A stretch of DNA of 64,000 nt from Myxococcales bacterium (GTDB taxonomy: Bacteria; Myxococcota_A; Bradymonadia; REDH01): NCBI GenBank assembly GCA_947496715.1, contig CANMDT010000004.1:2703-66702 (forward strand). Reading direction: 5' to 3'. Of the stretch, positions 17,310 to 34,803 are shown in pieces. Each line of letters starts with the position of its first letter. Position 1 is the stretch's first letter. A program made the position numbers and the translations under genes. Below the pieces are notes generated by a model. It was not told the origin of the DNA. It saw only the letters and a list, made by a program, of their open reading frames with translations, and did no database searches.

Positions 17310-17457
17310 ATGAAGGTCGGTTGGCTGTCGCGCCGGTCTCTTGGCGGCGCCTGCAGTAGCGACGGGGGCTGGCGTGGGCGATTGTCGCCGATCGGTTGAC
17401 TGGCACGGGATTTGCTCTATCTCTCGCGACACCCACGCATCCCTCCGGAGTTCTCCC

Positions 17458-20400
17458 ATGTATGCTCCCCTCGACCGTTTCAAGCTGCTCGGCGGCTCAC
17501 TCCTCGCGCTCCTCCTCGCACTCACTGCTGGCTGTGCCTCCGACTCCGCAGATGCGCCCATCGTCAACGACGAAGATTCGCTGGGCTCCGGCGCAGACTT
17601 TGTGCGGAACCCTTCCAGCTTCGTCTCCGCGGAGGGCGCGGCCGGCGACCAGGCAGCCAACCGGGGCGATGAGTCCCTCGATGCCGGCACCGGCGCCCCA
17701 ACGGATGACGCTGGCGGCGGGACCACCCGGACGGTCGAGGAGGGCGACATCTACCGCGTCCTTGCCGACCAGAAGATCCTCAACCTCAACAGCTATCGCG
17801 GCCTGCAGGTCATCGACATCGCGAATCTTGAGGAGCCCACCGTCATCTCCCGACTGCCCATCACCGGCACCCCCGTCGAGATGTATGTCGTCGGCGACCG
17901 CGCCTTCGTGCTCATGAACAACTGGCGGGGCTACTACGGCAACCGGAGCGATATCCGTGTCGAGACGCAGGAGGGCGGCCTCGTCCTCTCCGTCGATCTC
18001 TCCGACCCGCTCAACCCGGTCGAGCTCGGCCGCGCCTTCGTCCCCGGCTTCATCCAGACGAGCCGGCTGACCCGTGAAGGCGATGTCGCCGCGCTCTATG
18101 TGGCCGCCAACGAGTACGGGAACTTCGACCAGCCCGACGGCACCGTTCAGTGGGAAAACCGGACAGTTCTCAAGAGCTTCGATGTGAGCGGCGCAGCCAT
18201 CATCCCGAAGTCGGAACTCAACCTCGGCGGTTATGTCGCTGCACTGCAGGCGACCACGGAGGCCCTCCTCGTTTCGCGCTTCTCATGGACGGGCTCGTCG
18301 CCGAATAGCACCGTCTCGGTCGTCGACATCTCCGACCCGGCCGGCAACATGATCGCCGGCGACGAGGTCGAGGTCTCGGGCCAGGTCTGGAACAAGTATA
18401 ACATGGACCTCTACGAGGGCGTGCTGCGTGTTGTCTCGGGTCGCACCTGGGGCGGTGGGACCAACGCCAACCATGTGCAGACCTGGAACGCTACTGACCT
18501 CGGCAACCTCACGCCCATCGATGAGGCCACCTTCGGCGATGGCCAGCAGCTGTTTGCCACCCTTTTCCTTGGCAACAAGGCCTTCTTCGTCACCTACCTG
18601 CGGGTCGACCCCTTCCACGCCTTCGAAGTCGCGCCAGATGGCATGATTACCGAGCGCGCGGAGTACATTGTCTCCGGCTGGAACAACTACTTCCGCCCCG
18701 TCTTCAATGACAGCCGCCTCATCGGCATCGGCATGAACGACGTGGGCGGCACGACGATGGCCGTCAGCCTCTACGACATCGACGACCTCAGCAACCCGGA
18801 GCCGCTGATCAGTCGCGACGAGGTCTCTGCGAACAACAGCTGGTCGGAGGCGGTCTGGGATGACCGCGCCTTCTCGGTCCTCGAGGATGTTGTCTCCGTG
18901 GAGGGCTCGGGCGGCGTCACCGAGACCGGCCTCGTCCTACTCCCCTACTCGGGCTGGGATTCGGCCTACACCACCTACCAGTCGGCGGTGCAGATCTTCA
19001 CCTTCTCGAACAACACGCTCACCCGCCGCGGTGTCATGAACGAGGGCAACCCCGTTCGTCGCTCCTTCCTCGCCGCGAATGACACTACTGCCAACCTCGG
19101 CGAAGAGGAGCTCTCGACCTACGACACCTCCGATCCGAACAACCCTGCCGAGCTCGGCCGCGTGGAGCTGGCTCCGAACGCGACAGGCTCGCTGGTCTTC
19201 GGCGACTACGGCGTCCGCCTCATCGACAACGGCGCGGCCTCCTGGTGGTATGCCAGCCGCGGCGTCCGTCCTGATGCCCGCGTGGAGATCGTGCCGCTGT
19301 CGGCCGGCATCGACCTCGGTGCCGCAGTTGCCACGCTCGACGTGCCCTCGGGCGCGCAGCTCGAGCGTGTCGGCAACCTCATGGTTGTTGTCTCGGCCGC
19401 CTACGAGAGCCTGCCAGAGTACCCCTACTACAGCACGACGACCACGCTGAAGGCCTTCGATCTGGCTGACCCGACTGCGCCCCTCGCGCTCGGCACGCTC
19501 GAGACCGACGCCATCCCCGCCGACACCTACGGCGGCTACTACGGTGGCCCCGGCATGGTCGATTGCATGGACTGCGGTCGCGGCTGGTACGGCACCTCCC
19601 TCCTCAGCCGCACCCATGCCACCTCCAAGGCGCTCACCTTCGTCCGCTCCACGCAGGAGCAGGAGTCGCTCGGCATGGTCCACACCTGCAACAGCTACCC
19701 CACCGCCACCGCGTCGCCCGGCTGCAGCTCCGAAGACCTCGCCTCCTGCGAGTGGCTCTCTGGCGGCCGCACCTGCAACACCAATGAGGCCGGCGAGACC
19801 GTCTGCACCGGCGCCTACTACCGCTGCGGCTACGACGCCGACAGCTCGTACAGTTGCACCGAGGTCGAGGCCGCCGAGGTGGCCGTCTCGACCAGCTGCT
19901 ACGACAACGAGCAGTTCCGCTACTGGAACCGCTACCGGGCCTTCGTGGTCAACTTCGAGCAGCCCTCCAACCCCGTGCTTGAGCCGGTCCTTGAGATGTC
20001 GTCCGGCGAAGAGGGCGTGGCCACCGTCGCCGAGGGCGACACGCTCTACTACTCCTTCAAGGTTCCCTACGACGTCGAGGGCGACCCCCGTCCCTACGCG
20101 CGCTACTTCTTTCGCACGCTCGACCTCTCGCAGCCCTCTGAGCCCCTGCTGTCGGCCGGTGTGAATGTTCCCGGCCAGGTCCTCGATATCTCGGGCGACT
20201 ACCTCTTCACGCAGGACACCGTCTACGGCGACGCCATCATCGAGACCTCTCTCGCCCGCGTCCGCCTGTTCGAAGGCAGCGCCTATCTCATGAACCGGCT
20301 CCGGCTCCCCGACCAGCAGGTAGAGGCCGTGCAGCTCGACGGCCGCGGCAACCTGCTGGTCAGCCACCGCGACTCCTGGTGGAGCACTGTCACCTCGGGC

Positions 20401-20709
20401 GGCCCCGGCAGCGACATGCAGAAGCTCTCCATCTTCGACGTGAGCCTGCGCGAGCTGGCCTCGGTCAACGTCGACGCCTGGGCCACGCTCAGCGGCGCGC
20501 AGGACGGTCGCGCACTCTTCCAGGTCCCGGGCGGCCTCATGGTCGTCAACCTCGACACGCCCGCGAACCCCTTCCCGCAGGCCTACTTCCCGACGGCGGG
20601 CTGGCCGCAGAAGATCGATATCGCCGGCGACCGCGCCTATTTTGCGGCCGGCCGTTACGGCATCTACGACTTCGATCTTAACACCTACAACCTGCTGCCG
20701 CTCCTCTAG
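17458..20709 (+). CDS. large beta-propeller lipoprotein with LVIVD-type repeats
   Basis: Lipobox LTAGC. Recurring (V/I)xDxSxP motifs (LQVIDIANLEEP, VSVVDISDP, STYDTSDPNNP, KAFDLADPTAP, LMVVNLDTPANP, YGIYDFDL). Start at ATG 17458 after GGAG. Confidence 0.8.
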   Translation: MYAPLDRFKLLGGSLLALLLALTAGCASDSADAPIVNDEDSLGSGADFVRNPSSFVSAEGAAGDQAANRGDESLDAGTGAPTDDAGGGTTRTVEEGDIYRVLADQKILNLNSYRGLQVIDIANLEEPTVISRLPITGTPVEMYVVGDRAFVLMNNWRGYYGNRSDIRVETQEGGLVLSVDLSDPLNPVELGRAFVPGFIQTSRLTREGDVAALYVAANEYGNFDQPDGTVQWENRTVLKSFDVSGAAIIPKSELNLGGYVAALQATTEALLVSRFSWTGSSPNSTVSVVDISDPAGNMIAGDEVEVSGQVWNKYNMDLYEGVLRVVSGRTWGGGTNANHVQTWNATDLGNLTPIDEATFGDGQQLFATLFLGNKAFFVTYLRVDPFHAFEVAPDGMITERAEYIVSGWNNYFRPVFNDSRLIGIGMNDVGGTTMAVSLYDIDDLSNPEPLISRDEVSANNSWSEAVWDDRAFSVLEDVVSVEGSGGVTETGLVLLPYSGWDSAYTTYQSAVQIFTFSNNTLTRRGVMNEGNPVRRSFLAANDTTANLGEEELSTYDTSDPNNPAELGRVELAPNATGSLVFGDYGVRLIDNGAASWWYASRGVRPDARVEIVPLSAGIDLGAAVATLDVPSGAQLERVGNLMVVVSAAYESLPEYPYYSTTTTLKAFDLADPTAPLALGTLETDAIPADTYGGYYGGPGMVDCMDCGRGWYGTSLLSRTHATSKALTFVRSTQEQESLGMVHTCNSYPTATASPGCSSEDLASCEWLSGGRTCNTNEAGETVCTGAYYRCGYDADSSYSCTEVEAAEVAVSTSCYDNEQFRYWNRYRAFVVNFEQPSNPVLEPVLEMSSGEEGVATVAEGDTLYYSFKVPYDVEGDPRPYARYFFRTLDLSQPSEPLLSAGVNVPGQVLDISGDYLFTQDTVYGDAIIETSLARVRLFEGSAYLMNRLRLPDQQVEAVQLDGRGNLLVSHRDSWWSTVTSGGPGSDMQKLSIFDVSLRELASVNVDAWATLSGAQDGRALFQVPGGLMVVNLDTPANPFPQAYFPTAGWPQKIDIAGDRAYFAAGRYGIYDFDLNTYNLLPLL

Positions 20710-20807
20710 CGGGTCGGCCCTTCGCGGGTCGTGCTACTTGCCTCCAACGCCGAAACGGGCGAGGTGGGCAGACCGCGCCATTCGCTTGTTGGTTTTTGGA
20801 GTCTTCC

Positions 20808-23800
20808 ATGCTCAAGCCGATTGAGGCCCTCGCCTCCCTTCGCCTCTCCTCGCTTTCTCAAGGTTTCGCCCTGGCGCTGCTGGCTGCCTGCGGCACGACG
20901 CCGACCGCAGTTGGGGTCGCCGGCGGCGATGAGGACTCCGGCACGGATGTTTCGGGCGATGGCTCCTCCTTTGCCGACGGCTCGGGGGATGCGGGCTCAG
21001 GCGATGCCGGCTCCGACGTGGATCCGGATGGCACGCCCGACGGCTCCGGCCTGCCTGACCCGGGATGCGGCAACGGCGTATGGGAGAGCACCGAGGCCTG
21101 CGATGACGGCAACAGCATCGCCGGCGACGGTTGCGAGCCCGACTGCACCATCTCTGCCGGTTCGCCCTGTGCGCTCTGCACAAGCTCTGCCGAGTGCAGC
21201 GCGCCGACCTCTCTCTGCGCGCAGCTCAGCCGCCCCGCCTTCTGCCTGGCGGCATGCGACGACGCCGGCGGCTGTGCGGCAGGCTTTACCTGCGAGGCCG
21301 TCCCGCTGGCTGGCGATTTCATGCCCATGCCGCCGCTTGTCTGCGTGCCCGAAGACCGCTGCGTCCGGTTCTGCGACGATCCTGACAACGACGGCATCTG
21401 CGCACCCGATGACATCTGTCCGGCCGGCGACGACCGCCTGGACAGCAACGGCAATGGCATCCCCGATGGCTGCGATGGCCCGGTTGGCGGCGAGGTCTGC
21501 ATCAACGGCGTTGACGATGATCGCAACGGGCTCATCGACTGTGCCGACCCGGTCTGTGTGGGTTTGGAGGAGTGCGTGGGAGTCTTCGAGAACTGCGTGA
21601 ACGGGCTTGATGACGACGGCAACGGCCTCATCGATTGCGCGGACCCCTTCTGCTTCGGCATCCCCGACTGCGGCGCATCGACGGAGCTCTGCAACGACTT
21701 CCTCGACAACGACCTCGACGGCCGCGCTGACTGCGCAGATCCCGACTGCGCGGGCGACCGCAACTGCCTCTTGGTAGAGATCTGCGACGACGGCTTCGAT
21801 AACAACCGTGATGGCTTCGTGGACTGCTCCGACCCCACCTGCAGCGGCACCGATGCATGTGTCGGTATCGAGATCTGCAACGACTTCCGCGACAACGATC
21901 GCGACGGCTTGGTTGATTGCGCCGACCGGGACTGCGCGCTGCAGCCAGGCTGCGTTGTCGCGGCGGAGATCTGCGGAAATGGTCGCGACGACGACCGCAA
22001 CGGCCTCGCGGATTGCGCCGATCCGGCCTGCATTGGCACGACAAGCTGCCTACCCTCCACGGAGATCTGCGATGACCTGATCGACAACGACGGCGACCGG
22101 CGCATCGACTGTGGCGACACCGATTGCGCCGCCGATCCTGCATGCCCCACCGGTCCTCAGAGCTGCGTCGCACCCATTGAAATCACCGACTTCGGCGTCA
22201 GCACCGGCGCCACCTCGACCGGTCGGAGCAGCGCAGCCGGCAGCTGCGCGGATAGCAGCGGCACGGAGGCCGTCTTCGCCTTCACCGCACCGACCACCGG
22301 CCCCGTCTGCATGCGCACGCGCGGCTCCTCTTTCAACACACTGCTGTATGCCCGGAGCACCTGCGCCAACGCTGCATCGGAGATCACCTGCAACGACAAC
22401 GGTCGTAACCTGCAGAGCGAGATCTCGCTCAGCGCCGTTGCCGGACAGACCTACTTCATCTTCGTGGATGGCGTCAGCGGCGCGACCGGCAGCTATGTGC
22501 TCGCCGTGACGGAGGGCGCCTGTCCTGCGCTGGGCTTTGAAAACTGCACCGACGGCATCGACAACGACTCGGACTTCTTTGCGGACTGCGCCGACACCGA
22601 CTGCTTCTCCACCAGCACCTGCATCAGCTCCGCCGAGGTCTGCACCGACCGGGTCGACAATGATCGGGATGGGGCTCTCGATTGCGCCGACACCGACTGC
22701 GCCGCCAACCCCGCCTGCCTGCCGCCCGGAGCGGAGGTCTGCAACGACCTCTTCGACAATGACCGTGACGGAGCCACAGATTGCGCCGATAGCGACTGCA
22801 CGGCCAACCCGCTCTGCATCCGGCCACCGGAGACCAACTGCACCAACCGGACCGACGATGACGGCGACGGCGCCGTCGACTGCTTCGACACCGACTGTTT
22901 CGGCTCGGCGAGCTGCGACGTCTTTGAACTTTGCGCCGACGGCATCGACAACGACAGCGACACGCTCGTCGACTGCGCAGACAACGAGTGCGTCGGCGCT
23001 CCCAACTGTGTGACCGTCTCGCAGACCTGCGCGGCTCCGAACGTTGCGACCACCTACGGCCGCTACTCGGGCCTGACATCGCGCCTGGCGAACGAGAATG
23101 TCCCCTCCTGCGTGGGGTCGACGGCCCCCGAGTCTGTCTGGCGCTTCACACCGCCCGAGAGCGGGCTTGTCTGCGTGACGACCGCAGGCTCCACCTACGA
23201 CACCGTCCTCTTTGCGCGGAACAGCTGTGGTGGCGCAGGGACCGACCTTGCCTGCAACGATGACACCGGCGGACTTACCTCGCAGGTTCAGTTCACCGTG
23301 ACCGCGGGCGTCGATGTCTTCCTCATGGTGGATGGCTTTGCTGCGCTCGGCGGTACCTACCGGCTCAACATCACCGGCGGCGCCTGCGGGAGTGGGGTGG
23401 GGGAGACCGCCTGCACCGACCGCATCGACAACGACCGTGACGGCGCCATCGACTGCGCCGACCCGGACTGTGCGGGGACCGCCGCCTGCGCAGTTCCCAG
23501 TTCGGAGACCAGCTGCACCGACGTCGTCGACAACGATCGTGACGGCGCCATCGACTGCGCCGACCCGGACTGTGATGCCGACGCGGCCTGCGCGCTGCCG
23601 GCGAACGAACTCGATTGCGGCGACGGCCTCGACGATGATGGCGATGGCCTCACGGACTGTGACGACAGCGACTGTCTCGCCGATCCCCTCTGCGTTCCGG
23701 CCGTTGGGACCTGCGATGCGCCTCTGACCCTCAATCCGTTCGGAACCAACACAGGAAACCTGGCGGAGGGGGCGAACGTCGCGGCGGGCAGCTGTGGCGG

Positions 23801-24092
23801 CCTCGACGGCAACGAGCAGGTCTGGGGCCTCGATCTAGCCTTCCCGCTCCCCTTCAATGTTGCGGCCTGTGTTACGGTCCGGAGCGACGCCTTCAGCCCC
23901 GTGCTCTACTACGGCACCTCGACCTGCGGCGCCGTGGGCTCCGAACTCGCCTGCAGCCCCTCGGCTGATGGCCTGTCGGCCAGCCTGGAGGTCACGGTCG
24001 GCCCTGGCGACACCCTGTCGCTCTTCGTCGACTCGCTCGATGGTGGCGCCGGAGCCTACGACCTGTCGGTGAACATCGGCGCCTGCCCCTAG
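20808..24092 (+). CDS. giant Cys-rich lipoprotein: Myxococcus cysteine-rich repeat + arrays of MopE-type motifs + three PPC-like Cys-framed domains
   Basis: Lipobox LLAAC. CGNGVWESTEACDDGNSIAGDGCEPDC. ~25 repeats of C.D..DND.DG..DC.D.DC. Three ~125-aa domains ending …YFIFVDG..GA.G.Y.L.V..GACP. ATG 20808 after TGGAG. Confidence 0.8.
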   Translation: MLKPIEALASLRLSSLSQGFALALLAACGTTPTAVGVAGGDEDSGTDVSGDGSSFADGSGDAGSGDAGSDVDPDGTPDGSGLPDPGCGNGVWESTEACDDGNSIAGDGCEPDCTISAGSPCALCTSSAECSAPTSLCAQLSRPAFCLAACDDAGGCAAGFTCEAVPLAGDFMPMPPLVCVPEDRCVRFCDDPDNDGICAPDDICPAGDDRLDSNGNGIPDGCDGPVGGEVCINGVDDDRNGLIDCADPVCVGLEECVGVFENCVNGLDDDGNGLIDCADPFCFGIPDCGASTELCNDFLDNDLDGRADCADPDCAGDRNCLLVEICDDGFDNNRDGFVDCSDPTCSGTDACVGIEICNDFRDNDRDGLVDCADRDCALQPGCVVAAEICGNGRDDDRNGLADCADPACIGTTSCLPSTEICDDLIDNDGDRRIDCGDTDCAADPACPTGPQSCVAPIEITDFGVSTGATSTGRSSAAGSCADSSGTEAVFAFTAPTTGPVCMRTRGSSFNTLLYARSTCANAASEITCNDNGRNLQSEISLSAVAGQTYFIFVDGVSGATGSYVLAVTEGACPALGFENCTDGIDNDSDFFADCADTDCFSTSTCISSAEVCTDRVDNDRDGALDCADTDCAANPACLPPGAEVCNDLFDNDRDGATDCADSDCTANPLCIRPPETNCTNRTDDDGDGAVDCFDTDCFGSASCDVFELCADGIDNDSDTLVDCADNECVGAPNCVTVSQTCAAPNVATTYGRYSGLTSRLANENVPSCVGSTAPESVWRFTPPESGLVCVTTAGSTYDTVLFARNSCGGAGTDLACNDDTGGLTSQVQFTVTAGVDVFLMVDGFAALGGTYRLNITGGACGSGVGETACTDRIDNDRDGAIDCADPDCAGTAACAVPSSETSCTDVVDNDRDGAIDCADPDCDADAACALPANELDCGDGLDDDGDGLTDCDDSDCLADPLCVPAVGTCDAPLTLNPFGTNTGNLAEGANVAAGSCGGLDGNEQVWGLDLAFPLPFNVAACVTVRSDAFSPVLYYGTSTCGAVGSELACSPSADGLSASLEVTVGPGDTLSLFVDSLDGGAGAYDLSVNIGACP

Positions 24093-24102
24093 CAGTCGGG
24101 CG

Positions 24103-24119
24103 GGAGAAACATTTTCTCC
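24103..24119 (+). repeat. perfect AT-rich inverted repeat GGAGAAAcatTTTCTCC (7-bp stem, 3-nt loop) 10 nt after stop of 20808..24092, followed by GATTGTTTG
   Basis: Read directly; stands out in a 70% GC background. Weak terminator or protein-binding palindrome. Confidence 0.4.
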
Positions 24120-24125
24120 GATTGT

Positions 24126-24154
24126 TTGCACAAATCTGGCCGTTAAGGTTCAAT
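24126..24154 (+). promoter_or_regulatory. candidate sigma70-like promoter (TTGCAC-N17-TTCAAT) for second Cys-rich paralog
   Basis: Lower-GC intergenic spacer between the two paralogs. 38 nt upstream of ATG 24193. Confidence 0.3.
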
Positions 24155-24192
24155 CGTCGGTTGATACCCCATCTCTGTCGATTGGAGCATGC

Positions 24193-27100
24193 ATGTCTTC
24201 GCGAATCCCTCTCCTGCTTTGGCGCGCCGGCTCGGTTCTGCTCTTCTCTTGGCTGGCCGCTTGCGGCACCAGCGCCGGTGGCGCTGCGAGGGTTGATCCC
24301 ACCCTGGTCGACACGGGTGGGTCGGGGGATGGCTCGTCCGACACCACGGGCGACACCTCTCCGGATGGATCGGGGACGGTGGATGGCTCTTGCGGCAATG
24401 CCGTCCGCGAGCTCGGCGAGGCCTGCGACGATGGCAACACGACCGGCGGAGATGGCTGTGAGGCCGACTGCACCGTCACCAGCGGCGCCGCCTGTGCGCC
24501 CTGCGCGACCTCGACCGACTGCGGCTCTGTTGCCCCGCTCTGCGGCGCCGTCGGCGCCGCGACGGCCTGTCTGGCGAACTGTGATGCGGCCAGTGGCTGC
24601 GGTGATGGCTTTGTCTGCTCGCCCACCACGGTCGACGGCGTTGATCGTGCCGCCTGCATTCCCGCGACGGGTTCCTGCGCGGCGAGCTGCGCCGATGCGG
24701 ATGGCGATACCATCTGCGATCAGGACGACATCTGCGCGGCCGGCGATGACCGCATCGACACCGATGGCGACGGCACGCCCGACGCCTGCGAGGGCATCGA
24801 ACTCTGCACCAACGGCATCGATGATGACACCAACGGCCTCGTGGACTGCTTCGACGCCGCCTGCGCTGCCGACGCCTCCTGCGCAATCGTCAGCCGCGAA
24901 GTCTGCGCCAACCTCATCGACGACGACCGCAACGGCCTGACCGACTGCGCCGACCCGATCTGCTCGTCGGAGCCGGGCTGCGTGGTTCTGGCGGAGATCT
25001 GCGGAAACGGCATCGACGATGATGGCAACGGCCTTGCTGATTGCGCCGACGCCGCCTGCGGCAGCGAGCCCGGTTGCATCATCATCTCACTCGAGGTTTG
25101 CGACAACGGCATCGACGACGACGGCAACGGCCGCATCGACTGCGCCGATCCCGCCTGCTCCACCGACCCCGGCTGCGTGGTGCTCGGCCCCGAAATCTGC
25201 GGCAACGGCCTCGATGATGATCGCAACGGCCGCATCGACTGCGCCGACGGCGCCTGTGCAACCGATCCGAGCTGTGTCATCGGGACCGAGATCTGCGGCA
25301 ACAGCATCGACGACGACCGGAACGGCTTCACCGACTGCGGCGACGTCGCCTGCTCGGCCGACCCATTCTGCGCCCCCTCCAGCGAGATCTGCGACGACCT
25401 CGCCGACAACGACGGCGACCGCCTCATCGACTGCGGCGACCCGGACTGCGCCGCCGACCCCGCCTGTCCCACCGGTCCCCAGCTCTGCACCAGCCCCAAC
25501 CTCTTCGGCCCCTTTGGCAGCCGCACGGGTGCTACCTCTACGCTTGCCAACAACCAGGCCGGCAGCTGCGCCGTCAGCGACGGCCCCGAGACGGTCTACT
25601 CCTTCACCGCGACGGCGGCCGGCACGCTCTGCGCCCGCACCTTCGGCTCCTCCTACGACACCGTCCTCTATGTGCGCACGGCCTGCACCAACGCTGCTTC
25701 CGAGGTGGCCTGCAACGATGACGCCACCTTCAGCCAGCAGAGCCAGCTCGCCTTCACGGCCGTCGCCGGACAGCAGTACTTTTTCTTCGTTGACGGCTTC
25801 ACCGGCGCCTCGGGCAGCTACGCGCTGACCCTCTCTGCCGGCGCCTGCCCGGCCCGCGCCCGCGAGATCTGCACCGACGGCGTCGACAACGACTTTGACC
25901 TCTTCACCGACTGCGCCGATACCGACTGCGACGCCGACCCCGCCTGCATCATCGCGCCGGAAGACTGCCAGGATGGTCTCGACAATGACCGCGACACCTT
26001 CGTGGACTGCGACGATGCCGACTGCTCCACCTTCCCGACCTGCATCCCCGAGGCGCTCTGCGACAACGGCATCGACGACGACGACGACGGCGACGTGGAC
26101 TGCTTCGACCTCGACTGCCTCGGCGATATCGCCTGCCCGACCCTCGAAATCTGCGACGACTCCGCCGACAACGACGGCGATGGCCTCATCGACTGCGACG
26201 ACCCGGAGTGCATCGCCACGCCCGGCTGCGCGATCGCCGCGCAGACCTGCGCAGACCCCAACATCACGGACGGTTACGGCTCTTTCTTCGGGCTGACCGA
26301 CGCGCTTGCAGACAACTACGACCCCGGCTGCGCACGCTCCGCAGCCCCCGAGGCGGTCTGGCGCTTCAACCCGCCCGCGACCGGCACGGTCTGCATCAAC
26401 ACCAACGGTTCGGTCTACGACACTGTGCTCTACGCGCGCTCCAGCTGTGGAAGCACCCGCGACATCGACTGCAACGACGACACGCTGGGCCAGCAGTCGG
26501 AGATTGAGATCGATGTCACCATCGGCACCCCTGTCTACCTCTTCGTCGACGGCTTCAACAACAGCACGGGTGACTACCGCCTCACCATCGCCGCGGGCGC
26601 CTGCACCGCGCGCGTGGAGACGCTGTGCACCGATGGCCTCGACAACGATGGCGACAGGAACACCGACTGTAATGACAACGACTGCGATGCCGACCCTGCC
26701 TGTGCCCCCGTGCCGGAGACGATCTGCAACGATGGCGTCGACAACGATCGCGACGGCCGTACCGATTGCTTTGATGCCGATTGCAACGGTAACCCGGCTT
26801 GCGTCGAGACCATCTGCAACGACGGACGCGACAACGACAACGACGGCAACACCGACTGCAACGACACCGACTGTGCTGCCGATCCCGTCTGCGCGCCCTT
26901 CGCCGGTACCTGCACGATTCCGCTGATCCTCAACCTCACGGGCTCCAACACCGGCACCATCCAGGACGTTGGCTCCAACCGCACGGGTACCTGCGGAGGT
27001 GACGCAACGCCCGAGCAGGTCTGGACGCTTGCTGCGCCCGTCACCACAGCGTCGGAAATCTGCGTGACTGTCAACGCGACCGGCTTCACGCCGATCCTCC

Positions 27101-27273
27101 ACTACCGCGACGACACCTGCACCCAGCGCTCCGGAGAGCAGGACTGCGTCAACGGAACGGGTTCAACGGCGTCGATGACAGTAGTGCTTCAGCCTGGCGT
27201 GGTGCCCTACATCATCGTCGACGGCGGCCCCGGCGCCTACACGGTTACCACCGCCGCGGGCGCCTGCCCGTAG
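24193..27273 (+). CDS. giant Cys-rich lipoprotein, tandem paralog of 20808..24092 (same domain grammar)
   Basis: Lipobox WLAAC. Same Myxo Cys-rich repeat, MopE-type motif arrays and three PPC-like domains. TTGGAG SD. Confidence 0.8.
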   Translation: MSSRIPLLLWRAGSVLLFSWLAACGTSAGGAARVDPTLVDTGGSGDGSSDTTGDTSPDGSGTVDGSCGNAVRELGEACDDGNTTGGDGCEADCTVTSGAACAPCATSTDCGSVAPLCGAVGAATACLANCDAASGCGDGFVCSPTTVDGVDRAACIPATGSCAASCADADGDTICDQDDICAAGDDRIDTDGDGTPDACEGIELCTNGIDDDTNGLVDCFDAACAADASCAIVSREVCANLIDDDRNGLTDCADPICSSEPGCVVLAEICGNGIDDDGNGLADCADAACGSEPGCIIISLEVCDNGIDDDGNGRIDCADPACSTDPGCVVLGPEICGNGLDDDRNGRIDCADGACATDPSCVIGTEICGNSIDDDRNGFTDCGDVACSADPFCAPSSEICDDLADNDGDRLIDCGDPDCAADPACPTGPQLCTSPNLFGPFGSRTGATSTLANNQAGSCAVSDGPETVYSFTATAAGTLCARTFGSSYDTVLYVRTACTNAASEVACNDDATFSQQSQLAFTAVAGQQYFFFVDGFTGASGSYALTLSAGACPARAREICTDGVDNDFDLFTDCADTDCDADPACIIAPEDCQDGLDNDRDTFVDCDDADCSTFPTCIPEALCDNGIDDDDDGDVDCFDLDCLGDIACPTLEICDDSADNDGDGLIDCDDPECIATPGCAIAAQTCADPNITDGYGSFFGLTDALADNYDPGCARSAAPEAVWRFNPPATGTVCINTNGSVYDTVLYARSSCGSTRDIDCNDDTLGQQSEIEIDVTIGTPVYLFVDGFNNSTGDYRLTIAAGACTARVETLCTDGLDNDGDRNTDCNDNDCDADPACAPVPETICNDGVDNDRDGRTDCFDADCNGNPACVETICNDGRDNDNDGNTDCNDTDCAADPVCAPFAGTCTIPLILNLTGSNTGTIQDVGSNRTGTCGGDATPEQVWTLAAPVTTASEICVTVNATGFTPILHYRDDTCTQRSGEQDCVNGTGSTASMTVVLQPGVVPYIIVDGGPGAYTVTTAAGACP

Positions 27274-27363
27274 TGTGACTGGCGGCACTGCGCCGCCTAC
27301 TTGCCTCCAGATCAGCGAAGCAATAGCGGGTTGGCATCAGTTCTTCTCTCGACGGAGTTGGCG

Positions 27364-30300
27364 ATGCCGACCTTCTTTTTGCCCCGCGCCTCCGGCGCTT
27401 CCTCGCTCCGAGCAACCCTGTTGCAACTCGTTCTGGCGTTGGCGCTCCTTGTGCCGGCAGCGGGACGAGCAGCGACCATCACAGTCGATACCCTGCTCGA
27501 CCCCGCGCTCGACCTTGCCTCGCCCACCTCGCTGCGTGAAGCAATCACGGCCGCAAACGCGCTCGCCGGCGACGACATCATCGACCTCCGCGGCCTCTCC
27601 GGTACGCTGGTGATCTCGCAGGCGACGGCGCTGCCCGCGATCACCTCTAACGTCCAGATCCTTGGTCCAGGTGCAGATGTGCTCACCGTAGACCGGACGA
27701 GCGCCACCGCCTTCGGTCTGCTCTCCATCAGCGCCGGGACCGTGTCGATTTCAGGCCTCAGACTCAGCCGCGGAAGCCGAGCAGATGGCGGAGCACTGCT
27801 GGTCTCGGGGGGCGCGGTCACAGTCACCGGCTGCCACCTCCTCAACAACGCCTCGACGGGCATCATCGCCACCTCAGGGGGCGGCGCCATCCGCCTCAAT
27901 GGGGGCACGCTGGCCCTCTCGCAGAGCACCGTCTCGGGCAGCGTGGCGGCACGCGCCGGCGGCGCCCTCTATCTTGCAGCGGGCACGGCGACGCTCACCA
28001 ATGTGACCCTCTCGGGGAACACCGCCACCACGGGCGGAGGCGTCAACATCGCCGACAATGTGGCTGCGATCTTTGCTGCCAACTTCTCCACCTTCGCGCT
28101 CAACGCCGGCGCGACGTCGAGTGGCCTGCTCAATGCAGGGCGCGGTAGCTGCAACGTGAACTCCGTTGCCATCACCGGCAACACCGGCGCTGCGCTGCAG
28201 GCCTCTGCATCTTGCACATCCATCCAGAGCTACCTCTCTGCCACAGGCGGGCTGCTCGGTGCGCTTGCTGCCAACGGTGGAACGACGCCCACCCACCTGC
28301 CCGCTGCGGGCAGCCCCCTGATTGATGCAGCCAGCGCTGTCGTCCTCATTGCCCAGGACCAGCGCGGCGCTGCCCGTCCGCTCGATGGCGACGGTGACGG
28401 CGTTGCTGCGCCCGACATTGGCGCGGTGGAGTTCGGTGCGGTGCCTGTCATCAACCTCGGCGGCGGCCCCGTCACCTACACCGAGAACCAGGCCGCAGTC
28501 GCGCTGGCAACCTCCGCCACCGTCACAGACGCCGACACGGCTGCGCTCGCCACCGGCCGCCTCTCGGTCTCCTATGCAGCGGCAGGCCTGTTGACCGACC
28601 AGCTCACGCTGGGTGCAGGCTCGGGCACCGGCGCAGTTACACTTGTGGGCACCTCGGTCCGGGTCGCCGGCGTTGCGGTTGGCACCCTCGCAGGTGGCGC
28701 CAACGGCGCAAACCTGACCATCGTATTCCACGCCGCCGCCACCCTCGCCAGGGTCAGCGCGGTGGTCTCTGCCATCTCCTTCGCCGCGACCGGCGACAAT
28801 CCCACACCCAGTGACCGGACCATCCGATACACGCTCACGGACGGGCAGGGCGGAACCAGCCGCACGGCAACACGGACCGTCACGGTCGTCGCTGTGAACG
28901 ACCCGCCCCGGCTGGTGGCCGGTGCCTACGCGGCGGGCGCAGAGAATGCGGTGATGACAATCCCGCTGACGCTCGCAGACCCCGACACGGCGGTAGGTTC
29001 GCTCACGCTCGATGCAGCGTCGCTCACGCCGGCGCTCATGGATGGCGCCAGCTTCCTCTTCACGGGAGCCGCCGCCGCCCGCACGCTCGACATCACCCCC
29101 ATCCTCAACGCCAATGGCAATGGCGTCGTGACCGTGACCGTTTCAGACGGCAGTGCGACGGCGACGCTCGACCTCCCCGTCACCTTTGTCGCTGTGAACA
29201 GCCCGCCGGTTGCCAACCCGCTGAGCATTACGGTCAACGAAGACGGCGCCCGCAGCTTCACGCTGACCGCCTCCGACCCCGACGGTGGCCTGCTCGCCTA
29301 CATCGTCCGCACGCCGCCCGCCCATGGCACACTCTCCGGGCTCCCACCCAACCTCGTCTATCGACCGGAGCCCGACTACTTCGGACCCGACACCATCTCC
29401 TTCCAGGTGGTGGATGATGCCGATGCGCTCTCCAACCGGGCAACCGTCACCATCAATGTCGTGGGTGTGAACGACGCACCCGTCGCGCTGGCCTCCTCGG
29501 TTGATACGACCGAAGACGCGCCAGCCTCATTCACCTTTGCCGCGACCGATGTGGACGGCGACCCGCTCACCTTCGTCCTCGATGCAACCCCGACGCTTGG
29601 CACCGTCACCGCCGTCGCCGGCTTGCAGGCGAACTTCGCGCCCGCCCCCACTCTCTCTGGCGAGGAGCAGGTTGCCTTTCATGTGACAGATGGCCGGCTC
29701 GACTCCGCCCCCTCGACCCTCACGCTCCGCGTCGCTGCTCTGAACGACCTCCCGGTTGCCGCGCCCCTCGGTGTGACCGTCCGCGAAGACAACGCGGTGA
29801 CCGTCGCGCTCGTCGGAACCGACGCGGAGGGCGATGCCGTCACCGTCCAGCTCGATGCGCAGCCAGCCCGCGGCTCGCTCGAGGTGGCCGCCTCAGGCGC
29901 CCCCAACTTCACCTACCGCCCCGATGCCGACTTTTTCGGCGCCGATAGCTTCACCTTCTCGCTCTGCGATGCCGCCGGCTGCGGCTCACCCGCCACCGTC
30001 TCGCTTACCGTTACACCGGTGAATGATGCGCCGGTCCTCGGGCTGGTGCCAGACGTAGATATGCTCGAGGACGGCTCTGCAACCTTCAGCCTTGCAGCAA
30101 CCGATGTGGATGGCGACCCGCTCACCTTCTCGGTGGTGACCGAGCCGAGCGATGGCACGCTGACGCTGGTCGACGCAGCGACGGGCGAACTGACATTTGC
30201 TCCTCCGGCCAACTTTGTCGGCACGCTCTCCTTCGCCTGGCAGGTCTCCGACGGCAGCGCGACGGCCGGGCCAGACACCGTCGAGATCCGGGTGGCGGCG

Positions 30301-31635
30301 GTGAACGACGACGACGACGGCGACACCATCCTCGACAACGACGATAACTGCCCGCTGCTCGCCAACACTGCGCAAGAAGACAACGACGGCGACGGGCAGG
30401 GCGACGCATGCGACGCCGACGACGATGGCGACGGACTGCCGGATGGCTCGGACAACTGCCCGCTCGTCAGCAACCCGACACAGGCCGACACAGACCGAGA
30501 CGGGGTGGGCGATCTCTGCGATGCCGACATCGATGGCGATGGAACGCCTGCCGTTGACGACTGCAACGATCGCGACCCTGCGATTGCGACCCCGCGGGGC
30601 TACTTCCTCGACCTCGACTTTGACGGCGTGGGTGAGGCCTCCTCCTCAGAGCAGTGCTCCGCCGCGGCGCCACCCGGCTTCTCCCCCCTCACCGGCGACA
30701 ACTGCGAGGGGCTCAGCAATCCCGAGCAGGCCGATGCCGATGGCGACGGTCTCGGCGACCCATGCGACCTCGACAACGACGGCGACGGGGTCACCGACGC
30801 TGCGGACAACTGCCTGGGCCTTGCAAACGCCAATCAGGCCAACCTCGACGGCGACAGGCTCGGCGACGCCTGCGACGACGACGTCGACGGCGACGGCCTC
30901 CCCAATGAGGCCGACAACTGCCCCGCCGCGGAGAACGCCATCCAGGCCGATGCCGACCTCGACGGGCTCGGCGATGTCTGCGACCCCGACGATGACGGCG
31001 ACGGCGTGCGAGATGGCAACGACAACTGCCCTTTGGTCGCCAACGCGGACCAGGCCGACAGCGACGGCGTTCCCCCCGGCGACGCCTGCGATGGCGACCT
31101 CGACGGTGACGGCGTCGCCGATGCCGACGATAACTGCCCCCGCGTAAGCAACGCAGATCAGCTCGACTTCGACGCAGACGCACTCGGCGATGTCTGCGAC
31201 CCCGACGACGACGGCGATGCACGGCTCGACAGCGTCGACGACTGCCCCTTTGAGCCGGCCGTCACCCCCACAGGTTGCCCCGCCGACGCCGATGTCATCG
31301 CCGACACGACCGTGGAGGACACGGGAGCCGACACGACCGTCGAAGACACCACCGACACCACTGTCGAAGACACGACCGACACGACCGTGGCGGACACCTC
31401 AGACATCTCCCTCGACACCACCGGTGACGGTGGCGCCGACGCCAACCCCGGCGACGGCATCGACTTCGATGCGCCCGGCGACGGCTCCGGCAACGGCGTC
31501 GACCTCCTCGACAGCTCCACCCGCGGCAAGTCCAAGTCCTCCGGTTGTGCCTGCTCCGCCGCTGGCGCGGCGCTCGACCCATCTTGGCTCCTCGTCGGCC
31601 TGGCACTTCTTCCGCTGCGCCGGCGGAGAAAGTAG
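27364..31635 (+). CDS. MYXO-CTERM-anchored adhesin-like protein: choice-of-anchor-Q-like beta-helix, six ~95-aa VNDAP tandem repeats, TSP type-3 Ca-binding repeats
   Basis: Signal peptide. SLREAITAANA…GAARPLDGDGDGVAAPDIGAVEF. Repeats ending VNDAP. D.D.DG.GD.CD.DDDGDG…DNCP…Q.D.D repeats. C-terminal SSGCACS..AALDPSWLLVGLALLPLRRRRK. Confidence 0.85.
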   Translation: MPTFFLPRASGASSLRATLLQLVLALALLVPAAGRAATITVDTLLDPALDLASPTSLREAITAANALAGDDIIDLRGLSGTLVISQATALPAITSNVQILGPGADVLTVDRTSATAFGLLSISAGTVSISGLRLSRGSRADGGALLVSGGAVTVTGCHLLNNASTGIIATSGGGAIRLNGGTLALSQSTVSGSVAARAGGALYLAAGTATLTNVTLSGNTATTGGGVNIADNVAAIFAANFSTFALNAGATSSGLLNAGRGSCNVNSVAITGNTGAALQASASCTSIQSYLSATGGLLGALAANGGTTPTHLPAAGSPLIDAASAVVLIAQDQRGAARPLDGDGDGVAAPDIGAVEFGAVPVINLGGGPVTYTENQAAVALATSATVTDADTAALATGRLSVSYAAAGLLTDQLTLGAGSGTGAVTLVGTSVRVAGVAVGTLAGGANGANLTIVFHAAATLARVSAVVSAISFAATGDNPTPSDRTIRYTLTDGQGGTSRTATRTVTVVAVNDPPRLVAGAYAAGAENAVMTIPLTLADPDTAVGSLTLDAASLTPALMDGASFLFTGAAAARTLDITPILNANGNGVVTVTVSDGSATATLDLPVTFVAVNSPPVANPLSITVNEDGARSFTLTASDPDGGLLAYIVRTPPAHGTLSGLPPNLVYRPEPDYFGPDTISFQVVDDADALSNRATVTINVVGVNDAPVALASSVDTTEDAPASFTFAATDVDGDPLTFVLDATPTLGTVTAVAGLQANFAPAPTLSGEEQVAFHVTDGRLDSAPSTLTLRVAALNDLPVAAPLGVTVREDNAVTVALVGTDAEGDAVTVQLDAQPARGSLEVAASGAPNFTYRPDADFFGADSFTFSLCDAAGCGSPATVSLTVTPVNDAPVLGLVPDVDMLEDGSATFSLAATDVDGDPLTFSVVTEPSDGTLTLVDAATGELTFAPPANFVGTLSFAWQVSDGSATAGPDTVEIRVAAVNDDDDGDTILDNDDNCPLLANTAQEDNDGDGQGDACDADDDGDGLPDGSDNCPLVSNPTQADTDRDGVGDLCDADIDGDGTPAVDDCNDRDPAIATPRGYFLDLDFDGVGEASSSEQCSAAAPPGFSPLTGDNCEGLSNPEQADADGDGLGDPCDLDNDGDGVTDAADNCLGLANANQANLDGDRLGDACDDDVDGDGLPNEADNCPAAENAIQADADLDGLGDVCDPDDDGDGVRDGNDNCPLVANADQADSDGVPPGDACDGDLDGDGVADADDNCPRVSNADQLDFDADALGDVCDPDDDGDARLDSVDDCPFEPAVTPTGCPADADVIADTTVEDTGADTTVEDTTDTTVEDTTDTTVADTSDISLDTTGDGGADANPGDGIDFDAPGDGSGNGVDLLDSSTRGKSKSSGCACSAAGAALDPSWLLVGLALLPLRRRRK
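31309..31400 (+). repeat. short coding tandem repeat (DTTVEDT units) near adhesin C-terminus
   Basis: gacacgaccgtsgaagacacs periodicity. Confidence 0.6.
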
Positions 31636-31716
31636 CGCGCAGCCTGTCGCGGAAAGGTTGCAGGACTGCGACGGTCGTGCCAAACATCGGGCCGATTCCC
31701 CGTCGGAGAAGCCTAC

Positions 31717-33753
31717 ATGTCCAGCGAAGCTGTTGCCTCTGCGCCCCATGGTGCGCTCCCCAATCTCGCTGAGGTTCCGGAAGAGATTCGGGACCAAGTC
31801 TGGCTCGACACCTACTATCAGGGCGACTCCGTCAGGCAGCTGACGGTCCGCGCCGTCGTCATGGGCTCCATCCTCGGCATGATGATGTCGCTCTCCAACC
31901 TCTACATCGGTCTCAAGACCGGTTGGGGCCTGGGCGTCGCAATCACCTCCTGCATCCTCTCCTACGCCATCTGGACCGTCTTCTTGAAGTTCGGCTGGGC
32001 CAAGCAGCCCATGTCGATCCTCGAGAACAACTGCATGCAGTCCACCGCGACCAGCGCGGGCGTCTCGACGGGCGGAACCATGGTCTCCGCCATCGCGGCG
32101 CAGCTCATGCTGACCGGCGTCCACATGAACTGGAAGGTCCTCATGGCCTGGACGGCCTTCCTGGCCTTCCTCGGCGTCTCGATGGCCATCCCCATGAAGC
32201 GCCAGCTCATCAACCGCGAGCAGCTCAAGTTCCCCAGCGGCATCGCCGCCGCAGAGACGCTCCGCAGCCTCCACGCCGCCGGCGGAGAGGCGCTCATCAA
32301 GGCCCAGGCCCTCTTCTGGTCCATGGGCATCGGTGCGGTGCTCCAGTGGTGGCAGAGCGGCATGGGCGGTCTGGTGCAAACAATGCTTTCGCCCAGTGAG
32401 AAAGTTGCACCGCTCGGTGCTCTTGTCATGCAATGGGGTCCGATGCCGAAGATATCCAGCATGCTTCAGTCGCTGGGGCTATCCGCGGAGAGCATTCGGT
32501 TCCCCCTCACGCTCCCGATGGAGCTCGAACTTCATGCGAAGCTCTTCGGAAAGGACGTCTCGAAGCTCGGATTCGTCTTCCCCGTCGACCCCCTCATGAC
32601 GGCGGCCGGCATGATTGTCGGCATGCGCACCTCGCTCTCGATGGTCATCTCGGGCTTCGCCCTCTTTGGAATCGTTGGCCCCTGGCTCGATGACTCCGGC
32701 GTACTCCGCGAGATGCACGCCTCCGGTGCCCTCTCCTCTGCGACGCTCTCGGGCAGCGCCATCCGCAAGTGGGGCCTCTGGACCGGCTCCTCCATGATGG
32801 TTGCTGCCGGCCTTACCGCGGCGCTCTTCCAGTGGAAGTCCATGCTGGCCGGCATCTCCAAGCTCGGCGCGCTCTTCTCCGGCAAGAAGCAGGTTGCTGC
32901 GCACGACCCCATCGCTCACATCGAGGTCCCCAACTCCTGGTTCGTCATCGGCACCGGCATCTCGGGCCTTGGCTGCATCATCATCATGTATACCGAGTGG
33001 GACATCCCGCTCCACTGGGGCATCGTCGCCGTCGCGATGGCCTTCGTGCTCTCGCTCGTCGCCTGCCGCGCCACGGGTGAGACCGACACCACGCCCATCG
33101 GCGCCATGGGCAAGGTCACGCAGCTCTTCTACGGCGCCATGATCCCCAACCAGCCCATCCCCAACCTGATGACGGCCGGCGTGACCGCCGGCGCCGCCGG
33201 CGCCGCCGCCGACCTCCTTACCGACCTCAAGAGCGGCTACCTCCTCGGCGCCAACTCGCGCCAGCAGACCATCGCGCAGAGCATCGGCATCATCAGCGGC
33301 ACGCTCGCCATCGTTCCTGCCTGGTACCTTTTCGTCCCCGACGCCAGCGCCCTCGGCACCGCCCAGTTCCCCGCCCCGGCCGCCGAGGTCTGGAAGAGCG
33401 TCGCCGAGCTGCTCAGCCGCGGCATCTCGACCATGCACCCGACCATCCTCAAGGGCATCATCTTCGGCGGTTCGCTCGGCTTCCTCCTCACACTCACAGA
33501 GGGCCTCGCCCCCAAGAAGTTCCGGAGCTACCTGCCCTCCGCCACAGGCCTCGGCCTCGGCATGGTCATCCCCTTCGGTAACAGCTTCTCCTTCCTCCTC
33601 GGCGCGCTCATCACGCTCATCTGGACCAAGCTGAACGAGGCCTCCTGCGAGCAGAAGATGGTCCCCATCGCATCGGGCATCGTCGCCGGTTGCAGCCTCA
33701 TGGCGGTCTTCATCATGATCCTGCAGGCCGCCGGGTTGCTCCCGCTCGGGTAG
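31717..33753 (+). CDS. OPT-family oligopeptide transporter
   Basis: Polytopic membrane protein with N-terminal …SNLYIGLKTGWGLGV… and C-terminal …MVIPFGNSF…, typical of the OPT family. Confidence 0.85.
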   Translation: MSSEAVASAPHGALPNLAEVPEEIRDQVWLDTYYQGDSVRQLTVRAVVMGSILGMMMSLSNLYIGLKTGWGLGVAITSCILSYAIWTVFLKFGWAKQPMSILENNCMQSTATSAGVSTGGTMVSAIAAQLMLTGVHMNWKVLMAWTAFLAFLGVSMAIPMKRQLINREQLKFPSGIAAAETLRSLHAAGGEALIKAQALFWSMGIGAVLQWWQSGMGGLVQTMLSPSEKVAPLGALVMQWGPMPKISSMLQSLGLSAESIRFPLTLPMELELHAKLFGKDVSKLGFVFPVDPLMTAAGMIVGMRTSLSMVISGFALFGIVGPWLDDSGVLREMHASGALSSATLSGSAIRKWGLWTGSSMMVAAGLTAALFQWKSMLAGISKLGALFSGKKQVAAHDPIAHIEVPNSWFVIGTGISGLGCIIIMYTEWDIPLHWGIVAVAMAFVLSLVACRATGETDTTPIGAMGKVTQLFYGAMIPNQPIPNLMTAGVTAGAAGAAADLLTDLKSGYLLGANSRQQTIAQSIGIISGTLAIVPAWYLFVPDASALGTAQFPAPAAEVWKSVAELLSRGISTMHPTILKGIIFGGSLGFLLTLTEGLAPKKFRSYLPSATGLGLGMVIPFGNSFSFLLGALITLIWTKLNEASCEQKMVPIASGIVAGCSLMAVFIMILQAAGLLPLG

Positions 33754-33855
33754 TATGATGGAGGTTGGCGCTCACACCCGGACCGAGGCGGAGCCTTGCA
33801 CGGTTGCAGTGTCGCCTCCGCATTCTTGCGCGGTCACTGCCAACCGGAGGGCACC

Positions 33856-34803
33856 GTGAGCCGCGTCCTTATCACAGGTGGGCGTGGTCTTGTTGGAAGG
33901 CCCACGGTGGCGGCGCTCCTCGCGGCAGGCCATCAGGTTGTCTCCGTTACCCGCTCGCCCCGCGTCGGAGCGCCCGATGTTGCGCTCACCGAAGTCTCCG
34001 TTGGCGACCTCGGCGCAACGAACGATTGGACGCGGCTCCTCCGCGGCGTTGATGCGGTCGTCCACCTCGCGGGGCGTCGACCGCACGCAGACGACGAGGG
34101 CACCGACGCCATCGCCTCTTTCTACCAGGTCAATGTGCAGGGCAGCGCCCGACTGGCCGCCGCAGCACGCGCTGCCGGCGTCTCCCGCTTCCTCCATGTC
34201 AGCACCCTGAAGGTCCACGGCGAGACCTCCGACGGACCCCTCACTGAGCTCAGCCCCACTCGCCCTGAGAGCCCCTACGCCTCCTCGAAGCTCGAGGGCG
34301 AGGAGGCCGTCCGCGACGCACTCAAGGGCAGCCATGTTGCGCTGACCATCCTCCGGCCTCCCATGATCTACGGGCCCGGTGTCGAGGGTCATTTCGAGCG
34401 CCTGCTCATGCTCGCCGCCCGCGGGGTGCCGTGGCCGCTCGGTGCCCAGGACAACCGCCGCAGCCTGGTCGCTGCATCGAACTTTGCCGACCTGCTCGCC
34501 CACCTCGTCACCCAGACGCCGGAACAGGATACGCTGCTCGTCGCAGAGGGGTCACCGCTCTCCACAGCCGAGCTCTTCCGGCTGCTGCAGCGTGGCTTCG
34601 GACGGCGCGAGTGGTCGCTTCCCTTCGACCTCTCACCGCTCCTGCGAACCGCCCGCTTCTCGCCGGTAGACGGGCTCCTCGAGCGGTTGCTCGGCTCGCT
34701 GGAAGTCGACGCCGGCCGCCTCTTCGACGCCACCGGATGGACGCCTCCCGCTACCACCGAAGAGGCTCTTGCGGCCACCGCCCGCTGGTATGCGGCACGA
34801 TGA
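33856..34803 (+). CDS. NAD-dependent epimerase/dehydratase (SDR family)
   Basis: Rossmann ITGGRGLVG, catalytic YASSK. GTG start 33856 after GGAGG (track start 33796 adds a Cys/His-rich leader). Confidence 0.8.
   Translation: MSRVLITGGRGLVGRPTVAALLAAGHQVVSVTRSPRVGAPDVALTEVSVGDLGATNDWTRLLRGVDAVVHLAGRRPHADDEGTDAIASFYQVNVQGSARLAAAARAAGVSRFLHVSTLKVHGETSDGPLTELSPTRPESPYASSKLEGEEAVRDALKGSHVALTILRPPMIYGPGVEGHFERLLMLAARGVPWPLGAQDNRRSLVAASNFADLLAHLVTQTPEQDTLLVAEGSPLSTAELFRLLQRGFGRREWSLPFDLSPLLRTARFSPVDGLLERLLGSLEVDAGRLFDATGWTPPATTEEALAATARWYAAR

Follow-up and report, generated by a model that had tools for sequence, protein, structure and literature searches.

Among the known systems closest to the protein reported here are the MYXO-CTERM proteins of Myxococcus xanthus, with TraA as prototype. 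All 35 such proteins of this species (35/35) carry signal peptides, and for most of them the predicted function is that of an adhesin or hydrolase (PMC11980579). At the very C-terminal end, the class is marked by an invariant Cys, often two, a transmembrane helix and an Arg cluster; an N-terminal signal peptide completes the hallmarks (PMC11980579; bioRxiv 10.1101/2023.06.07.544157). The tag is cleaved by MrtX in M. xanthus and in E. coli, which requires the conserved Cys residues, and surface display of the tagged proteins depends on the secretion system of type II (T2SS) (PMC11980579). In the literature the sorting enzyme, myxosortase, is a glutamic intramembrane protease of the CPBP/Rce1 type, unrelated to exosortases; it is encoded by a single-copy housekeeping gene unlinked to its substrates (Haft, bioRxiv 10.1101/2023.06.07.544157). 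Here we describe a complete gene of 1,423 codons plus stop, at 27364..31635 (+) of a 64,000-nt stretch of contig CANMDT010000004.1 (67% GC; hereafter the window, to which all coordinates refer). It probably encodes a large surface protein of a myxobacterium-like organism (Myxococcota or Bradymonadales), exported, processed by a myxosortase, lipid-anchored, and acting as a calcium-dependent adhesin or cohesin.

The full architecture of this protein was found in only nine clusters at 90% identity (P0001-P0009), all metagenomic, among 5.8 billion clusters. Two of them, P0001 and P0002, hold 100% identical proteins on independent metagenome contigs, and the other seven are full-length colinear orthologue clusters of 51-88% identity. 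Residues 1393-1423 (31540..31632, +), with the sequence SGCACSAAGAALDPSWLLVGLALLPLRRRRK, form a MYXO-CTERM sorting tag in which SGC1395AC1397S is followed by the hydrophobic helix WLLVGLALLPL and by RRRRK, the same tripartite order of two-Cys signature, helix and Arg cluster as in M. xanthus; the signature reads GCAC, as against GCGC or FCC in the M. xanthus proteins. When the last 60 amino acids (aa) were scanned alone, the hidden Markov model TIGR03901 (TIGR03901.2) gave 26.5 bits against a cutoff of 20, and six orthologue tails gave 21.8-32.1 bits, all above that cutoff. The Cys pair is 27-29 residues away from the C-terminal end; every orthologue shares C1397, and all but P0009 have C1395, the sole Cys of P0009 aligning with C1397. 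The order SGC(x)CS, D-x-S-W-L-L, RRRR is kept down to 51% identity, and a terminal helix is predicted at aa 1407-1422. Other tags fit less well: JDVT-CTERM gave 6-16 bits against a cutoff of 27 on the six orthologue tails, GlyGly-CTERM was listed for two of these tails, those of P0003 and P0005, at 13.2 and 15.4 bits (cutoff 15.5), and neither model was listed for the target's own tail at E<=0.001. The MYXO-CTERM-like tail of the preliminary description thus holds under the TIGR03901 model when the tail is scored alone, and the signal-peptide layout that should accompany it is conserved, as set out below.

The gene itself is intact, with a ribosome-binding site and a Sec-type signal peptide. 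The open reading frame (ORF) extends over 27301-31635 (+), and the ATG at 27364, which gives 1,423 aa, is preceded by a Shine-Dalgarno sequence, GGAG (27354..27357, +), with a 6-nt spacer by direct reading. A longer TTG start at 27301 was rejected, as it has no Shine-Dalgarno sequence, its extension is not conserved and its n-region would be over-long. The G+C content at third codon positions (GC3) is 0.80 in the 27364-31635 frame, the sole ORF here with coding-like codon-position GC, and overlapping antisense and out-of-frame ORFs failed the codon-position GC filter and were discarded as high-GC artefacts. Coding-type GC3, identical copies on independent contigs and colinear orthologue clusters together indicate that the gene is real and under selection. 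The computed mature product is of ~134 kDa, with a pI of ~4.05 and 203 acidic residues. The signal peptide occupies aa 1-36 (27364..27471, +), with R8 and R16 in the n-region, the h-region LLQLVLALALLV (14-residue core), a hydropathy maximum at aa 15-37 and a predicted cleavage between GRA and ATITVD. In all orthologues a variable hydrophobic N-terminus closes with small-x-Ala, and strong conservation sets in precisely with A(A/V)T(I/F)TVD. Inspection of the target's N-terminal sequence revealed no lipobox.

By homology to the M. xanthus pathway, the protein would be exported by Sec through its N-terminal signal peptide and held transiently in the inner membrane by the MYXO-CTERM helix. The conserved Cys of SGCACS would then be lipidated, a housekeeping myxosortase encoded elsewhere in the genome would remove the helix and the Arg tail, and the T2SS would carry the protein, folded and with its lipid anchor, to the outward side of the outer membrane. 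There, a flexible, acidic linker of variable length would join the lipid anchor to a disulfide-stapled "wire" of thrombospondin type-3 (TSP3) repeats, which by homology to thrombospondins would be expected to bind some two dozen Ca2+ ions; the stalk would be formed by six Ig/cadherin-like domains, and a beta-helix with a choice-of-anchor-Q region at the tip would be the probable binding head. The likely role would be calcium-dependent adhesion or cohesion, to cells, to matrix polysaccharide, or to prey or substrate surfaces. The gene, its domains, the conservation of Ca2+-ligand and Cys residues and the agreement of the tail with its model come from the present analysis; processing, surface location, calcium binding and adhesive function are suggested by the M. 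xanthus pathway and by thrombospondin structures, and the label "adhesin" is one that we infer from domain types. Like the M. xanthus proteins, whose route runs through MrtX and the T2SS, the protein combines a signal peptide with a large adhesin-type ectodomain and a disordered region before the tag. The ectodomain is, however, unrelated to that of TraA, and no TraB-like partner adjoins the gene. Furthermore, M. xanthus uses MrtX, whereas the host of this gene is an uncultured freshwater lineage, for which the enzyme types to be considered are MrtX, MrtC or MrtP.

The TSP3 array occupies aa 981-1305 (30304..31278, +), with 27% Asp and 18 Cys, and is recognized by TSP_3 (PF02412) with 168.4 bits against a cutoff of 25 (E=2e-50, 8 stretches). 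The "about eight" units described previously proved to be such an array, made of seven canonical 36-aa units in strict register (994-1064, 1112-1291), with an insert of 47 aa at 1065-1111 and a cap at 1292-1305 that have two Cys each. Across the orthologues, at identities down to 51%, 80 of the 86 Asp residues stay D or N and all 18 Cys (18/18) are invariant. Compared with the crystal structures of TSP-2, COMP and TSP-1, the array gave a sequence E of ~1e-45, and in Foldseek an E of ~1e-15 with 40-53% identity to the same human structures. The thrombospondin/COMP signature domains (PDB 1yo8, 2rhp, 3fby, 1ux6) share with it the 36-aa repeats, the DxDxDGxxDxxD loops and the paired Cys of each unit; they form a calcium-wrapped "wire" without regular secondary structure, and the array is likewise modelled, confidently, as a wire without secondary structure. 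The alignments to these structures cover the type-3 repeats only. In contrast to thrombospondins, the target has neither EGF repeats nor a C-terminal L-lectin-like domain, a disordered linker and the sorting tag come after its array, and one unit is replaced by the 47-aa insert; it is also bacterial and presumably lipid-anchored, unlike the eukaryotic proteins. The insert (aa 1065-1111; 30556..30696, +), delimited by register analysis, reads DDCNDRDPAIATPRGYFLDLDFDGVGE...QC...PPGF, that is, DDCNDRDP...YFLDLDFDGVGE...QC...PPGF...GDNC, and is kept in 9/9 orthologues. It had no match in Pfam or NCBIfam, and its model is of low confidence (predicted local distance difference test, pLDDT, ~35). It may resemble the "putative metal-binding" Cys motifs of the MopE type.

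The combination of a TSP3 array with a MYXO-CTERM tag has a precedent in MtsC (MXAN_1334), the "cell-cell cohesion MYXO-CTERM protein", which PMC11980579 implicates in cohesion, S-motility and development. The background on MtsC and on the M. xanthus T2SS used here comes from PMC11980579, PMC12475490 and bioRxiv 10.1101/2023.06.07.544157. The MtsC model NF047638 was the top NCBIfam match, with 294.1 bits in three stretches, against an equivalog cutoff of 350 and in the TSP3 region only. MtsC shares with the target the array followed by the tag, but its model has 428 positions against 1,423 aa, the target having ~980 aa extra, namely the beta-helix and the six Ig-like units. Orthology to MtsC was rejected, on the score below 350 bits and on the lack of any named MtsC among the best 120 matches to the C-terminal half. 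A search with that half returned more than 4,500 bacterial TSP3 proteins with diverse partner domains, some with MYXO-CTERM; the similarity to MtsC is therefore generic. MtsC remains a precedent for a protein with TSP3 and MYXO-CTERM that is implicated in cohesion. The model for the myxosortase-dependent M36 metallopeptidase, NF038112, gave 147 bits against 1500, over the shared repeat and tail regions only.

The stalk is made of tandem-95 units. The tandem-95 model NF012211, whose cutoff is 90 bits, matched in 6 stretches with 213.5 bits (E=2e-64), and Big_9 (PF17963) in 5 stretches with 170 bits. Units 1-5 (aa 512-980; 28897..30303, +) are five Ig/cadherin-like tandem-95 domains (Big_9, Cadherin_4/5) of 91-100 aa, with individual Big_9 scores of 27.8 to 64.6 bits in Pfam; the first of them is degenerate, the other four (units 2-5) canonical, at pairwise identities of 27-47%. 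They are preceded by unit 0 (aa 366-511; 28459..28896, +), defined by the structure model and by alignment to units 1-5, which is a beta-sandwich of 146 aa with one helix, ending in VNDPP. The six repeats of ~95 aa ending in VNDAP or VNDPP that had been claimed therefore stand as six units, but unit 0 is longer and only three of the six boundaries have that sequence (VNDPP511, VNSPP611, VNDAP702, LNDLP795, VNDAP886, VNDDD980). Family models or structure prediction supported both the tandem-95 units and the TSP3 repeats. Giant adhesins of the tandem-95/Big_9/Cadherin_4/5 type share such Ig-like units of ~95 aa with boundaries of the VNDAP type; in the target there are six only, between a beta-helix head and a TSP3 base, and anchoring would be by MYXO-CTERM, not by the type I secretion system/RTX or the other anchors of giant adhesins.

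Unit 0 corresponds to residues 327-480 of the structure model, with a pLDDT of ~83, and looks like a Big_9/tandem-95-like unit enlarged by an insertion of ~45 aa, as it aligns to units 1-5. Pfam gave no above-threshold family for unit 0, nor for 5 short proteins built of 3-5 copies, and the NCBIfam tandem-95 model covers only its last 30 aa. An exhaustive phmmer search found relatives of unit 0 in 3,425 representative clusters; E<=1e-10 is reached by 1,712 of these and E<=1e-30 by 352. The arrays run to ~47 copies, and the longest of the proteins has 7,924 aa. Judged by these searches, the 146-aa unit is a widespread repeat family lacking a model in both Pfam and NCBIfam; with a family model for it, thousands of giant surface proteins would be annotated better.

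The head starts with a predicted right-handed parallel beta-helix at aa ~37-288 (27472..28227, +), whose rungs read GGA(I/L) and whose N-terminus is capped by a "PTSLREAI" helix, followed by the choice-of-anchor-Q motif region at aa 297-357 (28252..28434, +), which reads NGGTTPTHLP...SPLIDA...DQRGAARP...DIGAVEF. The yardstick for a pectate-lyase-like right-handed beta-helix (PF13229) is a Pfam score of at least 25.9 or a parallel beta-helix fold; the previous assignment of a beta-helix with choice-of-anchor-Q was supported by structure prediction and by NF041518 (choice-of-anchor-Q), with 59.4 bits against a cutoff of 25 over aa 297-357. The DQRG..R and D.GA.E motifs are invariant even across homologues of 29-36% identity and may, on this conservation, be a functional site; the structure model of this stretch is of low confidence (pLDDT <50). 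A head block of ~480 aa, comprising the beta-helix, choice-of-anchor-Q and unit 0, recurs whole at 28-36% identity in many unrelated large proteins. Several homologues are named by JGI for a CSLREA N-terminal domain; the corresponding motif of the target is PTSLREA, with Thr for Cys, in 9/9 orthologues, and a search of aa 1-380 against NCBIfam at E<=10 matched nothing but choice-of-anchor-Q. The best surface-protein fold analogue of the beta-helix is RbtA (Rhombotarget A of Acinetobacter baumannii; PDB 9cdv, 9cdu), the beta-helix passenger of another system made of a C-terminal tag and a T2SS (PMC12643943). RbtA, of 617 aa, depends on GlyGly-CTERM and rhombosortase, in contrast to MYXO-CTERM and 1,423 aa in the target. 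A sequence-level homology was not upheld: a profile of the N-terminal module run against PDB sequences found only a ciliate Pmp-repeat protein, and as RbtA was not found the relation stays at the level of the fold.

A beta-helix head might also mean that the protein is a surface-tethered, polysaccharide-active enzyme, in which the helix would be a lyase, hydrolase or epimerase with exopolysaccharide or the glycans of prey as its substrate, while the Ig-like and TSP3 regions would be no more than a spacer and the tag no more than an anchor. The fold is indeed shared with many lyases, but we regard such an enzyme as unlikely. No enzyme family model matches, and sequence identity to enzymes is 8-19%; the invariant residues of the helix are Gly, Asn, Thr and Ser, of the kind found in structural rungs, with no catalytic constellation of Asp, Arg or Lys. 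Furthermore, the non-enzymatic adhesins PfbA, Vag8 and RbtA score similarly in the fold comparison, and homologues bear repeats of the Chlamydia Pmp type, which are typical of adhesins.

Between the TSP3 array and the tag lies a disordered linker rich in Thr, Asp, Glu and Gly, at aa 1306-1392 (31279..31539, +; pLDDT ~33). It contains a 24-nt tandem repeat at 31301-31388, of 3.5 copies according to Tandem Repeats Finder, which encodes (DTTVEDTT)n. Copy number varies by whole units among the orthologues, P0003 having fewer and P0004 more, which indicates that the length of the linker, and with it the distance from anchor to ectodomain, evolves by repeat slippage. A linker of this kind could also be a site of release, and the protein would then be shed by linker cleavage, or secreted unanchored, as a calcium-crosslinked structural component of the matrix or a calcium buffer. 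Part of the TraA and of the MXAN_4924 is released to the outside of the cell, and a cut within the disordered stretch that adjoins the tag has been proposed (PMC11980579); the ~90 disordered residues and the extreme acidity of the product would suit such a role. We nevertheless consider it quite improbable: the tag, with its Cys and Arg cluster, is strongly conserved down to 51% identity, which argues that anchoring matters, and shedding would add to surface display, not replace it.

Several observations weigh against the reading of the protein as a myxosortase-processed, lipid-anchored adhesin. The signal peptide was assigned by manual analysis alone, from hydropathy, charge and the small-x-Ala site. 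In the full-length scan the tail gave 19.8 bits, just below the TIGR03901 cutoff of 20, a shortfall that we tentatively attribute to scoring within a long, compositionally biased protein. This is a practical pitfall, as a tag in such a protein can miss the cutoff and yet pass when scored alone. The tail has a conserved D1404-P1405 before the 11-residue hydrophobic core and P1417 within it, whereas typical MYXO-CTERM helices are without charged or Pro residues (Haft, bioRxiv 10.1101/2023.06.07.544157); the equivalent spacer of the verified substrate TraA contains D and P as well (PMC11980579). The beta-helix fold is common to many polysaccharide lyases, hydrolases and epimerases, and the score of the MtsC model is under its cutoff. 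A myxosortase, a T2SS and further MYXO-CTERM proteins in the host are assumed, the window being only 64 kb of its genome, and the host was placed from labels of metagenome-assembled genomes (MAGs) and from neighbour gene families; singleton MYXO-CTERM matches outside Myxococcota are false positives (Haft, bioRxiv 10.1101/2023.06.07.544157). That the protein is no myxosortase substrate and stays in the inner membrane facing the periplasm, held by an ordinary uncleaved anchor or another Cys-containing tag, would agree with the full-length score, the atypical Asp and Pro and the unverified host phylum and myxosortase, but it is highly improbable, given that the tail passes alone with MYXO-CTERM as its best-scoring tag model, that the GCxC signature and RRRR are conserved, that the periplasm would be an odd place for an ectodomain of adhesin type and 134 kDa, and that the neighbour genes are myxobacterial in type.

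For the myxosortase substrate that we prefer, the sorting enzyme had been expected to be exosortase- or archaeosortase-like, or similar, and to lie outside the window. The literature corrects the first part to a CPBP-type myxosortase. The second agrees with a scan of ~40 ORFs of the 64-kb window, in which no CPBP, myxosortase or T2SS gene was found, nor any second protein with a MYXO-CTERM-like tail; absence of the myxosortase is expected and not notable, because this single-copy housekeeping gene is not co-located with its substrates.

The structural calls hold in almost every detail and amount to a sound annotation of a mosaic surface protein, built of known modules and a known sorting tag. 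The gene adds a predicted MYXO-CTERM substrate from an uncultured freshwater lineage and joins this sorting tag to a design of head, stalk, calcium wire and linker; its direct value is modest, and it would carry more weight if the choice-of-anchor-Q beta-helix head, with a fold shared with RbtA of A. baumannii, gained a function. A more ambitious proposal, which we think distinctly unlikely, is that the nine-cluster family serves an uncultured myxobacterial lineage from fresh water as its main calcium-dependent adhesin for cell-cell cohesion or kin contact, that DQRG..R/D.GA.E of the head (choice-of-anchor-Q beta-helix plus 146-aa domain) would be a new ligand-binding or catalytic site, and that (DTTVEDTT)n copy number would tune the reach of the head. 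Separately, the 146-aa unit could define a large repeat-domain family of giant bacterial surface proteins, so far without a model.

The nearest genome matches come from MAGs of freshwater lakes that carry the label uncultured delta proteobacterium; one, ErkenSummer_bin-2361, matches at 94% over a partial contig and the other, Ki3-D3_bin-0810, at 51%. Neighbours of myxobacterial type are found in the window, including a MbnH of the MXAN_0977 type, acidic double-disulfide lipoproteins, Ser/Thr kinases and FHA proteins; as gene families these are consistent with Myxococcota, without being proof of it.

The gene is the last of four large secreted-protein genes lying head to tail at 17341-31635, on one strand and with gaps of 86-100 nt. 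A contiguous surface-protein block of ~14 kb, with the present gene directly after paired Cys-rich lipoproteins, had been noted before, and the paralogy of the pair, the single strand and the short gaps confirm it. A promoter and terminator scan of 17000-34000 gave 0 promoter-like and 7 terminator-like sites, no excess over shuffled sequences, and an operon is suggested by the common strand and by gaps of 81-100 nt. In the orthologues of 72-81% identity the block persists, as do the genes downstream for an OPT transporter, an epimerase, a GT4 and an aromatic amino acid hydroxylase. The orthologues of 51% have different neighbours and are located after a KefB-type gene, and a family-wide conserved operon was therefore rejected; the block is a lineage synteny, kept only in close relatives.

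The two lipoprotein genes of the block, at 20796-24092 (+) and 24193-27273 (+), encode paralogues of 1,098 and 1,026 aa with 48% identity and a LAAC lipobox. Both have ~9% Cys, 18% acidic residues, 14-15 "acidic double-disulfide repeats" (NF033662) and weak PPC-like segments, and both still adjoin the orthologous gene in relatives at 72-81% identity. The first gene of the run, 17341-20709 (+), codes for a protein of 1,122 aa that includes a beta-propeller domain (PF09826); its listed TTG start gives no obvious signal peptide, so that the true start is uncertain. Upstream of it lie a di-heme enzyme of the MbnH family (15261-16517, +; TIGR04039, 480 bits against a cutoff of 363) and a 246-aa lipoprotein with a LAAC lipobox and no family match (16514-17254, +), which overlap by 4 nt and could represent MbnH with a partner protein, in a setting other than that of methanobactin. 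Two further large putative surface proteins are encoded at 57598-59613 (-) and 60120-62549 (-): one of this pair has an IgGFc_binding domain (PF17517, E=1.6e-64), and the other a sub-threshold metal-binding motif of the MopE type.

A Kup potassium transporter at 44593-46770 (-) has, besides the 100% identical P0391, no relative above 76%, its matches forming a group at 72-76% and then falling to ~50% in mixed phyla, which indicates that public genomes cover the source lineage only sparsely. Finally, two Ser/Thr protein kinases and two FHA-domain proteins are encoded at 1562-3139 (+), 46817-47857 (+), 54353-55714 (-) and 55662-56798 (+); such a density of kinase and FHA signalling is typical of myxobacteria and gives soft support to the host assignment.

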